Part shown: positions 41,100 to 42,680 of the stretch, piece after piece
Numbering within the stretch: position 1 is the stretch's first letter
Layout of the letters: every line of letters starts with the position of its first letter
From: Escherichia phage HMD-P10
Reading direction: 5' to 3' (one strand)
Sequence record: PV469800.1
DNA length: 64,000 nucleotides
Program-made: the position numbers and the translations under genes
Notes under the pieces: generated by a model
What the model was told of the DNA's origin: nothing
The model's input: only the letters and a program-made list of their open reading frames with translations
Databases searched by the model: none

Positions 41100-42680
41100 T
41101 CAAATCCCTATACAACCCTTTTCCTTTCCTTTCCAGAATCTATCCCATACCTTAAAAGCAATAACTCTATAGCTTACTCTATAGCCCCTTATCAAATCAA
41201 CTTAAATATAAGCCCATAACCCGAAAGGGAAGGGCAACCATTAATTGGTATTGTTACCAATCCCTTAAACGCTCTATAAAGCCCTATAACAGCCTTATCA
41301 ACCTAACTTAAGGGATTGCATTACCTCACACTTAAAAGCCCTTTATAAAGCTTCCCAGAGCCTTAAAAGAATCTTATAAGGGTGTAAGCTTTATTATCTC
41401 GTTAGTATCTTGTGAACTACTAAAAAGGGCTTGTTAGTGTCTTAAAAGTATGTTATAGGGGCTATAAAGTTACTTTGAAGTAGCTTAAAAGTTGCTTAAA
41501 AGTTACGTAAATGCTAGCCCCCTTAACATTTTCTTAACAATTTCTTAACAAACCCTACATAGTTATGCTTTTAAGGCACTTGTTAGCAACTTGTTAAATC
41601 TCTGTTAAAACCACGTAAAAGCCTTGTAAGAGCCTTTGACATAGCCTATAAAGCCTCTGTAAAGCCCTATAAATAGCTTTCTGTATAGTTGGGGTGTAAT
41701 TACTAGGAAGAGACTAAAAAGAGCTTATAAGGAGCTATAAAGGGCTTTTAAGAGGGCTATTTAAAGGGTCACTAAGAGGGAAAGGGAACGATAAGAAAAG
41801 AATAGTGACCATGTTAATAGCTTGTTAAAAAGATTAAACACTTGTTAGGAACTTGTTAATTATCTTAACAAAATAACTCTTTAAAATTAACTTGTTAGCT
41901 CTTGTTAGTCATCTGTTAAGACTCTGTAAAGACCATGTATCAACTGTTAAGAAACTGTTAAGCCTTTGTTAGTTCTGTTAAGAATCTGTTAAGACCTCTG
42001 AAGAGATGTTAAGAAGATGTAGCAACTGTTAAGAGATTGTTAAGGATATTTTAAAATTCTGCAAAGGGGATGTTACAGGGATGTTAAGGGCTACCAAGCA
42101 GATATACATCTTCTACAGATATTTTTCAGTTCCTTCAAAGACCCTAAAAAAATGACTTGATAGTCCTATTTTATAAAAATTTTAAAATTCTGAATAATTA
42201 CCTATACAGTCTTTTAAAAATACAGGCATAAACAGGCTTATAAGATACCTTGTTAATACCGTGTTAGACCTTGTGAGATAAGGTCTGTGAAGATATTCCT
42301 GTTAAGTTTGTTAAAACAGTCTATATAGAGGCTTAGTAATACCTAGTGAACACCTATAGAGGGTAACATAGCTGACCTAGAGATTAAGAGGTGTATAGGG
42401 GCTTCTAAGAGGCTATAGAGAGATGGTTAAGGTGATTGTATAGGTTGTTAAGAAGGCTTGTTAGAAGAGTGTTTAGAAGGTCTATACAGAGGGGCTATTA
42501 AGACCACTAGATAGATACTAAGATACTATATAGTACTATATAACTATATATAGAGAGTAAGCTTAAGAAGGTTGTTAAGAGGGATAGATATTTTATTCAC
42601 ATATGATGGTGACCCAGAGGTTGGGACAACCGATGAAATTTTATAAAAATTAAAAAGCCCCCAATTAAGGAGGCTCTTAA
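41100..42680. repeat. 1.6 kb non-coding region dense in short repeats (CTTGTTAG, CTGTTAAG, CTTAAAAG, CTATAAAG)
   Basis: no ORF of 60 aa or more on either strand; more than 25 TGTTA(A/G) copies; lies between convergent gene blocks. Confidence 0.7.

Follow-up and report, generated by a model that had tools for sequence, protein, structure and literature searches.

Felix O1-like phages are widely used against Salmonella and E. coli, and the ends of their DNA have been described for several members of the group. The terminal repeat (DTR) of UAB_Phi87 was found to be 608 bp by Bal31 digestion and run-off sequencing, and the published DTR lengths for Pr103Blw and Ro111lw are 581 bp and 613 bp, respectively. 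Published mapping by Bal31 and PhageTerm in relatives thus covers 581-613 bp. For Felix O1 itself the genome paper gives a list of other direct repeats, and 'short terminal repeats' are only inferred there. In the papers on Felix O1-type phages we found DTR sizes only, and none that described motif arrays or boundary boxes; the DTR of Felix O1-like phages is already known, and only its motif grammar seems to be undescribed.

Short DTRs accompanied by short repeats are also found in the unrelated phages T7 and SP6. T7 has an exact, non-coding DTR of 160 bp with 13 copies of CCTAAAG in one orientation, located within the repeat as well as to its left and right. Each concatemer junction of T7 holds one copy of the repeat, the second being made at packaging, which starts by pausing of the phage's own RNA polymerase at the junction. 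Dunn and Studier are said to have described, in 1983, the T7 terminal repeat as flanked by the short-repeat arrays SRL and SRR. In SP6 an exact DTR of 174 bp is accompanied by CTTAGT in 11 copies, most of them immediately to its right and with a single orientation. Phased short repeats are further known beside the cut site in lambda (the cosB R sites) and SPP1 (pacL/pacR), where they would bend or wrap the DNA for the nuclease, and in iteron origins such as lambda ori and plasmid oriV, where phased direct repeats are combined with AT-rich DNA.

The DNA analysed here is a window of 64,000 nucleotides from Escherichia phage HMD-P10 (PV469800.1), whose sequence places it in Felixounavirus (Felix O1-like myoviruses). 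The region at 41100-42680 was matched by 256 phage records at 80-95% identity, nearly all of them from Felixounavirus and relatives. A sequence-only reading had described it as a stretch without any ORF of 60 aa or more, lying between the terminator of the plus-strand array and the minus-strand block where transcription converges, and all of this was borne out on both strands. There are no ORFs of at least 60 aa in 41100-42680, and none of at least 30 aa on either strand in 41220-42686. The plus-strand ORFs finish at 41030 and the minus-strand ORFs start at 42687, and the two Rho-independent terminators between them both face inward and are also annotated at the homologous places in phage AYO145A. 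No stop-free run in the six frames exceeds 46 codons, compared to a maximum of 78 +/- 17 in mononucleotide shuffles, none of 500 shuffles having an equally short maximum; stop codons are thus enriched in the region, and its GC content is 34% against 38.7% in the window. The elements found are as follows, with the DTR ends mapped from relatives.

41069-41092, plus strand: Rho-independent terminator of the plus-strand gene array (AGCCCCTTAAATGGGGCT stem at 41069-41086, then a T run)
41097-41516, no strand: left flank of the junction, from the motif map, conservation blocks and an 11-phage alignment
41517-42095, plus strand: DTR counterpart by homology, 579 bp, 34% GC, non-coding, single copy in the window
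41515-41528, minus strand: left boundary box, reading TGTTAAGGGGGCTA on the minus strand and pointing out of the DTR
41520-41551, minus strand: three inverted TGTTAAG copies (CTTAACA on the plus strand) at exact 11-bp spacing, just inside the left boundary
41579-41770, plus strand: inner DTR, with three direct TGTTA(G/A) units at 41581, 41592 and 41603 (11-bp spacing)
41810-42090, plus strand: dense phased array in the right half of the DTR, 16 plus-strand TGTTA(A/G) units
42082-42097, plus strand: right boundary box, TGTTAAGGGCTACC then AA, directed outward from the DTR, with the right genome end mapping to it
42096-42652, no strand: right flank of the junction, which by homology follows the left-hand DTR copy in virion DNA
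42511-42552, plus strand: ACTATATA-type tandem units of period 8, kept in all three genera, with one extra unit in SUSP1
42653-42678, minus strand: Rho-independent terminator of the minus-strand gene block, matching the plus-strand terminator

The genome ends were mapped through relatives, on the basis of UAB_69 and E9; the GenBank record of UAB_Phi87 is not opened at the physical ends and was left out. The record of E9, which according to its announcement was ordered with PhageTerm, begins and ends with an exact 580-bp repeat whose place in the window is 41517-42095, and the repeat_region annotated 'DTR' (618 bp) in UAB_69 maps to 41515-42097, the PhageTerm-ordered records and the UAB_69 annotation differing by 2 nt on each side. 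In close relatives the virion DNA thereby has the same sequence at its two ends. The records of D4, I14.1, H12, CRP22, ZX4221 and E9 start at 41517, those of ECP2307 and pEP20 begin at 42095 in minus-strand orientation, and those of GE_vB_7A and NJ12 end there. At least 10 records from different laboratories open or close exactly at the DTR boundaries, and the segment is present twice in 28 records. Around each boundary the window matches E9 exactly for 10 nt or more to the left and to the right, and among 11 phages from Felixounavirus, Mooglevirus and Suspvirus hardly any change is seen at the two boundaries; fixed, sequence-specific boundaries are in this way conserved in the HMD-P10 genome. 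Two places in KMM2 were considered as a DTR and rejected, as they represent a 64-bp assembly overlap. The records of dune, BPS17W1 and ekra start at about 42422-42480 of the window and not at the DTR boundaries, and these starts are taken to be assembler breakpoints in repetitive DNA.

Based on this homology, 41517-42095 would be the counterpart of the short, exact and non-permuted DTR of packaged DNA. It stands only once in the window because a concatemer, or a collapsed short-read assembly, shows the repeat once. A packaging or genome-end site was among the functions guessed from the sequence alone, and this guess is supported because the DTR of relatives maps to 41517-42095 and published end-mapping agrees; the comparison with relatives proposed as its check gave nearly invariant boundaries and conserved motif cores. 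We find it highly likely that the whole 1.6-kb region is a Felix O1-like concatemer junction, where unit genomes are joined and then cut by terminase for packaging. Such an identity would account for the absence of genes in the region, and with 41517-42095 as the terminal repeat the start, the end and the true length of the genome (the assembly plus about 579 bp) would be fixed.

That the region is packed with short motifs, as had been noted before, is evident when the counts are compared to the rest of the window. TGTTA[AG] occurs 27 times on the plus strand and 4 times on the minus strand of the 1581-bp region (more than 25 copies had been claimed), versus 57 and 44 times in the remaining 62.4 kb, giving an approximately 18.5-fold enrichment on the plus strand with a strong strand bias. 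The highest density per 300 bp is 17 inside the region and 4 elsewhere in the window, and the looser pattern CTNNNAAG has 36 plus-strand matches. On the plus strand CTTGTTAG is found 6 times in the region and not at all in the rest of the window, with corresponding numbers of 7 and 6 for CTGTTAAG, 4 and 1 for CTATAAAG, 6 and 16 for CTTAAAAG, and 2 and 2 for GATGTTAAG. The TATATA/ACTATA stretch of the sequence-only reading was placed by Tandem Repeats Finder at 42511-42552 with a period of 8. The TGTTA(A/G) motifs are helically phased, with peaks in the pair distances at 11, 20, 31, 42, 51 and 62 bp and a best period of 10.2-10.5 bp, about 10.4 bp, and the observed phasing was reached by none of 2000 jittered controls. 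This phasing was absent from the earlier description. Across the three genera the TGTTA cores are conserved at 0.96 and the spacers at 0.79, with a Mann-Whitney p of 9e-10 that is overstated because the compared sequences are phylogenetically related. Indels among the relatives are of 11, 12, 22-23 and about 29 bp, those of 11, 12 and 22 bp being approximately whole repeat units.

The left flank (41097-41516) is unique and non-coding, and by homology it precedes the right-hand copy of the DTR in virion DNA. Its plus strand has the CTNWWAAG class (CTTAAAAG, CTATAAAG, CTTATAAG) in 10 copies, and conservation is very high in two blocks, 41188-41236 and 41349-41395. Beyond its three direct units the inner DTR continues as a run of CTATAAAG, CTGTAAAG, CTTATAAG and CTTTTAAG units. 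The right flank, likewise unique DNA, has 7 further TGTTA(A/G) units, CTATAGAG units, conserved blocks at 42231-42274 and 42311-42351, and an invariant AT-rich block, CTATTTTATAAAAATTT, at 42166-42182.

The boundaries themselves are marked by TGTTAAGGG, of which there are only two copies in the 64 kb, both strands counted, one at each boundary, inverted and pointing outward. Both extend as TGTTAAGGG(GG)CTA. The left genome end maps inside or beside the left box, where AGCCCCCTT shows no change among 11 phages of three genera, and the right boundary sequence TGTTAAGGGCTACCAAGCAGATATACA is nearly invariant. The inverted box is imperfect across relatives, as the left boundary has the variant TGTAAAGGG in 3 of 11 phages and SUSP1 has TGTTTAGGG at the right boundary, and it is weak in Kolesnikvirus.

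The Felix O1-like DTRs of UAB_Phi87, UAB_69, Ro111lw, Pr103Blw and E9 are 85-95% identical to the region, with the same boundaries and the same converging genes. Nothing essential differs; the 579 bp in the window compares to 580-618 bp in these relatives, and the changes in length are gains or losses of 11-bp units along with small palindromic inserts. In Kolesnikvirus (the Erwinia phages phiEa21-4, phiEa104 and M7) the same syntenic gap of 1429 bp without genes lies between converging genes, with a DTR of about 440 bp set by record ends at the homologous place. It has inverted TGTTAA copies after the left boundary, as in phiEa104, 12 direct TGTTAAG toward the right, and AAGCAGATATACA outside the right boundary, which is kept in phiEa104. 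In the left flank CTTCTAA(G/A) replaces CTTAAAAG or CTATAAAG (CTTAAAAG becoming CTTCTAAG), the box TGTTAAGGG is not kept, and the DNA is otherwise unalignable; the motifs are kept even where the DNA between genera cannot be aligned.

As in T7, arrays of 6-8 bp motifs are found both inside and flanking the DTR, and CCTAAAG of T7 resembles the CTNTAAAG class of the HMD-P10 junction. The Felix-type repeat is however 3.6 times longer than that of T7 and is packed with helically phased TGTTAAG as an additional motif class. The Felix-type junction is flanked by converging terminators, whereas in T7 the promoters A0, phiOL and A1 follow directly after the left repeat. Further, the phage is a myovirus without a recognisable small terminase, in contrast to T7 with gp18, and no phage RNA polymerase is known for it. 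A T7-like role for a small terminase (TerS) and a phage RNA polymerase finds no counterpart in the window, with no recognisable TerS beside the large subunit (TerL) and junction promoters at chance level. On this comparison the region would work like a T7 junction in outline without sharing its protein machinery. SP6 differs in having another motif, a GC-rich and nearly motif-free DTR, and the T7-like biology of a podovirus. Compared to lambda cosB and the SPP1 pac site, motif copies likewise abut both boundaries as phased repeats under selection beside a cleavage site, but those systems have cohesive or headful permuted ends, 3-7 sites and a known TerS, while HMD-P10 has at least 30 candidate sites.

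The following gene product is presumed to act as the nuclease at the DTR boundaries.

58330-59946, plus strand: large terminase subunit (TerL), phrog_979, E = 1e-233

A tRNA cluster lies upstream of this gene and the portal gene downstream (59954-61429). When the surroundings of TerL and the genes beside the junction were scanned against PHROG, no small terminase or DNA-binding protein was detected; the Felix O1 paper likewise reports TerL without TerS, and the clustering of TerL with a Felix-type DTR group was described by Bardina et al. 2016. We propose that terminase would cut once at each boundary of the single repeat copy, as in T7-type phages, and that the repeat would be duplicated by DNA synthesis to give two copies per packaged genome. 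The last genes on each side are transcribed toward the ends and run into the inward-facing terminators. The helically phased TGTTAAG and CTNTAAAG units in and beside the repeat, at least 30 in number, would be protein-binding sites, and the part of the packaging machinery that recognises DNA, either an equivalent of the small terminase or TerL, may be assembled or wrapped by the arrays and thereby placed at the boundaries. The inverted TGTTAAGGG(GG)CTA boxes have the arrangement to be expected of a single site-specific nuclease that makes its nicks on opposite strands at a distance of about 580 bp. The end mapping in relatives, the conservation of boundaries and motifs, and the phasing are observed; that the arrays guide the terminase we infer, along with the binding protein, the polarity of nicking and the duplication of the repeat by synthesis.

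Further, we tentatively suggest that the TGTTAAG/CTNTAAAG lattice and the inverted TGTTAAGGG..CTA boxes might together form the complete cis packaging signal of a terminase without a conventional small subunit, where the lattice wraps or polymerises a recognition protein or TerL and the boxes direct symmetric nicking of opposite strands at two points separated by about 580 bp. This is a possibility to which we give somewhat less than even weight. If it holds, the Ounavirinae, with more than 250 genomes in four genera, could help decode how ends are defined and duplicated in short-DTR phages, because analogous arrays are present in T7 (CCTAAAG) and SP6 (CTTAGT). The strong conservation of motifs relative to spacers in four genera gives clean predictions for mutagenesis on the recognition and duplication of short DTRs and on the role of the arrays, and the 1.6-kb segment is an obvious candidate for a minimal packaging signal in engineering or transduction-type delivery with Felix O1-like phages.

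A protein other than the terminase, from the phage or of the host nucleoid type, might instead read the array for protection or tethering of the ends, for control of ejection or for insulation of transcription. Motif cores more conserved than spacers and a helical phasing would be seen in this case as well, and in T5 a non-coding region close to the left end, rich in repeats, serves as the injection stop. In addition, CTTAAAAG and CTTATAAG units are present in the leaders of two divergent early-promoter regions (about 4.75-4.9 kb and 50.7-50.83 kb), and this could mean that their reader is not confined to packaging; therefore the CTTAAAAG class may have another or an additional reader. We nevertheless consider such a protein unlikely as the explanation of the region, since the TGTTAAG class is essentially confined to the junction (a maximum of 4 per 300 bp elsewhere versus 17), the sole two copies of TGTTAAGGG are exactly at both cut sites as mapped by homology, and the unrelated short-DTR phages T7 and SP6 carry analogous arrays at their junctions. 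The placement of TGTTAAGGG and the arrays of T7 and SP6 tie the arrays to the formation of ends. The binding array for a phage regulator postulated by the sequence-only reading stands in part, as the conservation pattern points to protein-binding sites, but these sites would most likely be read by the packaging machinery and not by a transcription regulator. A replication origin, where a phage or host initiator would use the phased repeats as iterons and the DNA would unwind at the AT-rich blocks, either instead of or besides packaging, seems more doubtful still. Phased direct repeats are many, the AT-rich blocks at 42166-42182 and 42636-42650 are invariant, the region is at 34% GC against 38.7% for the window, a DnaA box is matched in 8 of 9 positions at 42593, and T7 has secondary origins near its ends. 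Classical iterons are however 17-22 bp and few, as opposed to cores of 7-8 bp in at least 30 copies over 1.5 kb, and iteron origins differ from the region in unit length, copy number and an adjacent initiator gene. No initiator-like gene was recognised beside the region, where the flanking proteins match only families of unknown function. T7-type origins are primed by transcription, and sigma-70-like promoter matches are here at chance (10 versus 7.3 +/- 2.9). Among host-factor signatures the region holds no Chi site, the one near-DnaA box and one match to the IHF core. Cumulative GC-skew turns at about 5 kb, at 42-43 kb and at about 50 kb, and it cannot discriminate because all three turns coincide with switches of the coding strand; the turn at 42-43 kb anticipated by the proposed skew check is present but is explained by the coding-strand switch, and GC skew was dropped as a test of the origin. 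The region coincides with mapped genome ends, which already explain the conservation of the boundaries, and the earlier idea of an origin with iterons gained no positive support.

The concatemer junction remains our preferred reading also when set against non-coding RNAs or very small proteins encoded by the region, an explanation we regard as barely credible. Several short hairpins are conserved, e.g. CCCGAAAGGG near 41230, and ORFs of 25-55 aa are annotated as tiny hypothetical genes in the records of E9, UAB_69, SME50 and others. Rfam and tRNA scans of the region found nothing, the sole Rfam match being below threshold (E = 0.33) and falling on a terminator by chance, and what a structured non-coding RNA should show, a family match or covarying helices together with a promoter, was not seen. 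Promoters are not above chance, the terminators face inward, and the contrast in conservation between motifs and spacers suits binding sites and not a folded RNA. As to proteins, ORFs of 30 aa or more are lacking in 41220-42686, stop codons are enriched, and the indels of 11, 12, 22-23 and about 29 bp are not multiples of three. The tiny 'hypothetical proteins' called in the region by several database records are very probably spurious.

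The junction lies between converging genes, and the orientation of the open reading frames on both sides, together with two terminators facing each other across it, confirmed that transcription converges on this stretch. The sequence-only reading had reported 41100-42680 to be free of ORFs of at least 60 aa; an ORF scan of both strands agreed, and between 41220 and 42686 even a threshold of 30 aa was not reached on either strand. The longest stop-free run in the six frames is 46 codons, against 78 +/- 17 in 500 composition-matched shuffles, none of which was as short. The more than 25 TGTTA(A/G) copies of that reading proved to be 27 on the plus strand and 4 on the minus strand, compared with 57 and 44 in the other 62.4 kb (an 18.5-fold enrichment), and the density per 300-bp window reaches 17 inside the region and at most 4 outside. 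CTTGTTAG is present in six copies in the region and in none elsewhere on the plus strand of the window, and the TATATA/ACTATA tract was located at 42511-42552. The repeat-rich feature is genuine and strongly non-random. Additional to the earlier description is a helical phasing of the motifs: TGTTA-to-TGTTA spacings peak at 11, 20, 31, 42, 51 and 62 bp, with a best period of 10.2-10.5 bp, and none of 2000 position-jittered controls was as strong.

Comparison with relatives, which the same reading had proposed as a check, found the region present and conserved: 256 phage records match over the full length at 80-95% identity (Felix O1 at 89.6%), nearly all of them Felixounavirus and relatives from Escherichia, Salmonella, Shigella and Citrobacter. 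In these records the region is unannotated, or carries tiny 'hypothetical protein' calls, an automatic 'repeat_region' or two terminators. A Felix O1-type junction is also found, at 90% identity, at 135326-137142 of the 147-kb record of Staphylococcus phage SA1 (GU169904.1); its position inside a Staphylococcus-labelled phage record suggests that the record is chimeric or contaminated.

Three functions had been offered, a replication origin, a packaging or genome-end site and a regulator binding array. The second was substantiated, as the virion ends of relatives map to both conserved boundaries, and the region is very probably a genome-end junction. The DNA packaged by Felix O1-type phages has been reported to be linear and non-permuted and to end in short direct terminal repeats (DTRs), of 608 bp in UAB_Phi87 (Bal31 digestion and run-off sequencing), 581 bp in Pr103Blw (PhageTerm) and 613 bp in Ro111lw, and DTRs were also reported for four Philippine isolates, E9 among them. 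The DTR regions mapped or annotated in UAB_Phi87, UAB_69, Ro111lw, Pr103Blw and E9 are homologous to the HMD-P10 region. The E9 record begins and ends with the same exact 580-bp repeat, whose first and last bases align with 41517 and 42095, and the 618-bp repeat_region annotated as 'DTR' in UAB_69, a phage of the same series as UAB_Phi87, maps to 41515-42097, at most 2 nt off each E9-based boundary. In a database search with 41517-42095 alone, the records of D4, I14.1, H12, CRP22, ZX4221 and E9 start exactly at 41517, those of ECP2307 and pEP20 start at 42095 in opposite orientation, and those of GE_vB_7A and NJ12 end at 42095. As the E9 repeat, the UAB_69 'DTR' and the record ends all map there, we assign 41517-42095 by homology as the predicted DTR equivalent of HMD-P10. 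This segment has two copies in 28 records and a single copy in the window, as concatemeric DNA or a collapsed short-read assembly would give; short-read assembly merges both DTR copies and may put the repeat mid-contig (PMC10438801). It should be noted that the terminal-repeat identity of the Felix O1-like region is already known, from publications as well as from GenBank annotation.

Features of the HMD-P10 junction and the large terminase gene (window coordinates; strand where assigned)
41069-41086, plus strand: terminator stem, followed by a T run, facing the minus-strand terminator across the region
41097-41516: left flank, unique non-coding DNA before the right-hand DTR copy; CTNWWAAG class predominant, 10 copies
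41515-41528, minus strand: left boundary box, TGTTAAGGGGGCTA, read outward from inside the repeat
41517-42095: predicted DTR equivalent, 579 bp, 34% GC, by homology to relatives' ends
41520-41551: three inverted TGTTAAG at 11-bp spacing, directly inside the left boundary
41581-41603, plus strand: three direct TGTTAAG-class copies, after the inverted trio
After the direct trio and before the dense array: block of CTATAAAG, CTGTAAAG and CTTATAAG units
41810-42090, plus strand: dense array of 16 direct TGTTA(A/G) units
From 42082, plus strand: right boundary box, TGTTAAGGGCTA, read outward from inside the repeat
42096-42652: right flank, DNA after the left-hand DTR copy; 7 more TGTTA(A/G), CTATAGAG units and ACTATATA repeats
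42166-42182: invariant AT-rich block in the right flank
42678-42653, minus strand: terminator facing the plus-strand terminator across the region
58330-59946: large terminase; the portal gene adjoins

In an alignment of the region that covered 11 phages from the genera Felixounavirus, Mooglevirus and Suspvirus, both boundaries are nearly invariant. The left one reads ...CGTAAAnGnTA outside and GCCCCCTT(A/T)ACATT inside the repeat, the right one ...TGTTAAGGGCTACC inside and AAGCAGATATACA outside. Read outward from inside the DTR both bear one common box, and the 9-mer TGTTAAGGG has only two copies in the 64-kb window, both strands taken together; these are at the two boundaries and inverted. 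Variants of the box are TGTAAAGGG on the left in three phages and TGTTTAGGG on the right in SUSP1. Within the dense array, conservation is higher for the TGTTA cores than for the spacers (0.96 vs. 0.79; p = 9e-10, which is overstated as the sequences are related), and the aligned phages differ in length mostly by units of 11, 12 or 22 bp, close to whole repeats. Conserved cores between freely varying spacers, together with helical phasing and non-triplet indels, make up the pattern of protein-binding sites, unlike that of coding DNA or a folded RNA.

Two families of small inserts were seen, both at sites that vary between phages. One is a perfect 21-23 bp palindrome, ATTGGTA-TTGT-TACCAAT followed by CCC, which is found in the window, UAB_69 and Silverhawkium and in none of the other aligned phages. 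Its behaviour is that of a very small insert, mobile or hairpin-forming, and it contributes to DTR length variation. The other, of about 25-33 bp and found in relatives only, is a short hairpin followed by GAATC, e.g. ATGAGATAGGAATCTATCGAATCC and ATGAGGTAGATTCTACCGAATCAAC.

Insert sites
Window 41244-41264 (left flank): palindrome, one copy
UAB_69 sequence (L007) 1301-1321: palindrome, one copy, within the DTR
Silverhawkium sequence (L013) 643-663, 1111-1131 and 1160-1180: palindrome, three copies
Window-equivalent ~41105: hairpin-GAATC in SUSP1 and Silverhawkium
Window-equivalent ~41425: hairpin-GAATC in UAB_69 and KMM4
Window-equivalent ~42112: hairpin-GAATC in Moogle and KMM4
Window-equivalent ~42285: hairpin-GAATC in Silverhawkium

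Within 42596-42650, a conserved ATGGTGACCCA precedes an open frame of 13-16 codons ending in an invariant AAATTTTATAAAA, just ahead of the minus-strand terminator. The start of the frame is conserved across the three genera and its middle is divergent; no convincing ribosome-binding site was seen for it, and it could be a micro-ORF or a further binding block.

A replication origin at the junction lacks support. The GC-skew analysis did reveal a turn there, but it coincides with the coding-strand switch, as both remaining turns of the window do with theirs, and is explained by that switch rather than being specific to an origin. Further, the repeat units are too short and too numerous for classical iterons, a neighbouring initiator gene was not found, and the region has one near-DnaA box only and no promoter signal, its 10 sigma-70-type matches (7.3 +/- 2.9 expected) being at chance level. 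The same promoter count, the short stop-free runs and the lack of ORFs also make RNA genes or micro-ORFs unlikely, and an Rfam search of the region found no match. It is possible that the motifs form a binding array with a role outside packaging, such as end protection, ejection control or insulation, since the leaders of two early-promoter regions also contain CTTAAAAG-class units; the TGTTAAG class, on the other hand, is restricted to the junction, where it marks the predicted cut sites.

T7-type phages have one repeat per concatemer junction; terminase cleavage is site-specific, and DNA synthesis supplies the second copy (Watson model). For a genome-end junction in HMD-P10, we speculate that the inverted, outward-pointing boundary boxes would be recognition elements for the cuts. 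As the boxes are inverted, a nuclease nicking a fixed strand relative to the box would open one strand at the left boundary and the other strand at the right, which is what a scheme of staggered nicks and fill-in requires. The phased lattice of TGTTAAG and CTNTAAAG would bind and organise the DNA-recognition component of the packaging machine. We infer both roles tentatively, and judge them slightly less probable than even.

The sequences of two known junctions were checked: T7 has an exact 160-bp DTR with 13 CCTAAAG inside and on both sides, in one orientation, and SP6 a 174-bp DTR with 11 CTTAGT copies beside it. The HMD-P10 junction resembles the T7 concatemer junction in kind, but its repeat is longer and saturated with motifs, these are strictly helically phased, converging terminators stand where promoters follow the T7 left repeat, and neither a small terminase subunit nor a phage RNA polymerase is recognisable. 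In T7, pausing of the phage RNA polymerase at the junction has been reported to lead to the start of packaging. By analogy, the region would work like a T7-type junction in outline, without the protein machinery of T7. No recognisable small subunit was found near the large terminase gene, an absence already noted for Felix O1. Directly upstream of that gene, 26 tRNA genes cluster at 52877-57900; the PHROG matched by a 75-aa ORF at 57789-58016 has no known function, and the ORF is probably not a real gene, as it overlaps tRNA-Ser and tRNA-Cys. We found no description in the literature of the motif grammar with its phasing and selective conservation, or of the inverted boundary boxes, which together give a directly testable hypothesis of how the genome ends of short-DTR phages are set.

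The alignable part of the region shrinks to about 120 nt in the Kolesnikvirus phiEa104, an Erwinia phage, yet a 1429-bp gene-free gap lies at the same place between converging genes (1610-3038 of its sequence, L016). Two inverted TGTTAA lie just inside the left boundary, 12 direct TGTTAAG follow further right and AAGCAGATATACA is again outside the right boundary, whereas CTTCTAA(G/A), in 9-12 copies, takes the place of CTTAAAAG in the left flank. The homologous boundaries are the starts of the Kolesnikvirus records Hena2, Roscha1 and Prophecy and the ends of M7, the vEam series and SPARTY, from which we predict a DTR of about 440 bp (L016 2167-2606); PhageTerm has suggested short DTRs for Kolesnikviruses. 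The layout is kept where the DNA is unalignable, hence the architecture predates the sequence that can be aligned, and this speaks for a function. The Kolesnikvirus junction offers a natural contrast set for finding the motif-reading protein.

Elsewhere in the window, the divergent-transcription regions at 4690-4900 and 50680-50840 share a near-identical element of tandem -35-like boxes, TTGACAA-N5-CTTGACAAGGTGT, followed after about 25 nt by ACTTAAAAGGTT, and contain several CTTAAAAG, CTTATAAG and CTTTTAAG units. As the left flank of the junction uses the same motif vocabulary, it is possible that one DNA-binding factor is common to all three. Two copies of the repeat AAGTACTTTACAAGGGGCTTAAAAGCTGATATCTTAAGCCCCAGATAAAG lie between genes at ~35605-35660 and ~38262-38317. 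The repeat is a terminator-like hairpin whose loop contains CTTAAAAG, and its copies are probably the counterparts of the 57-bp direct repeats that were described for intergenic sites of Felix O1.
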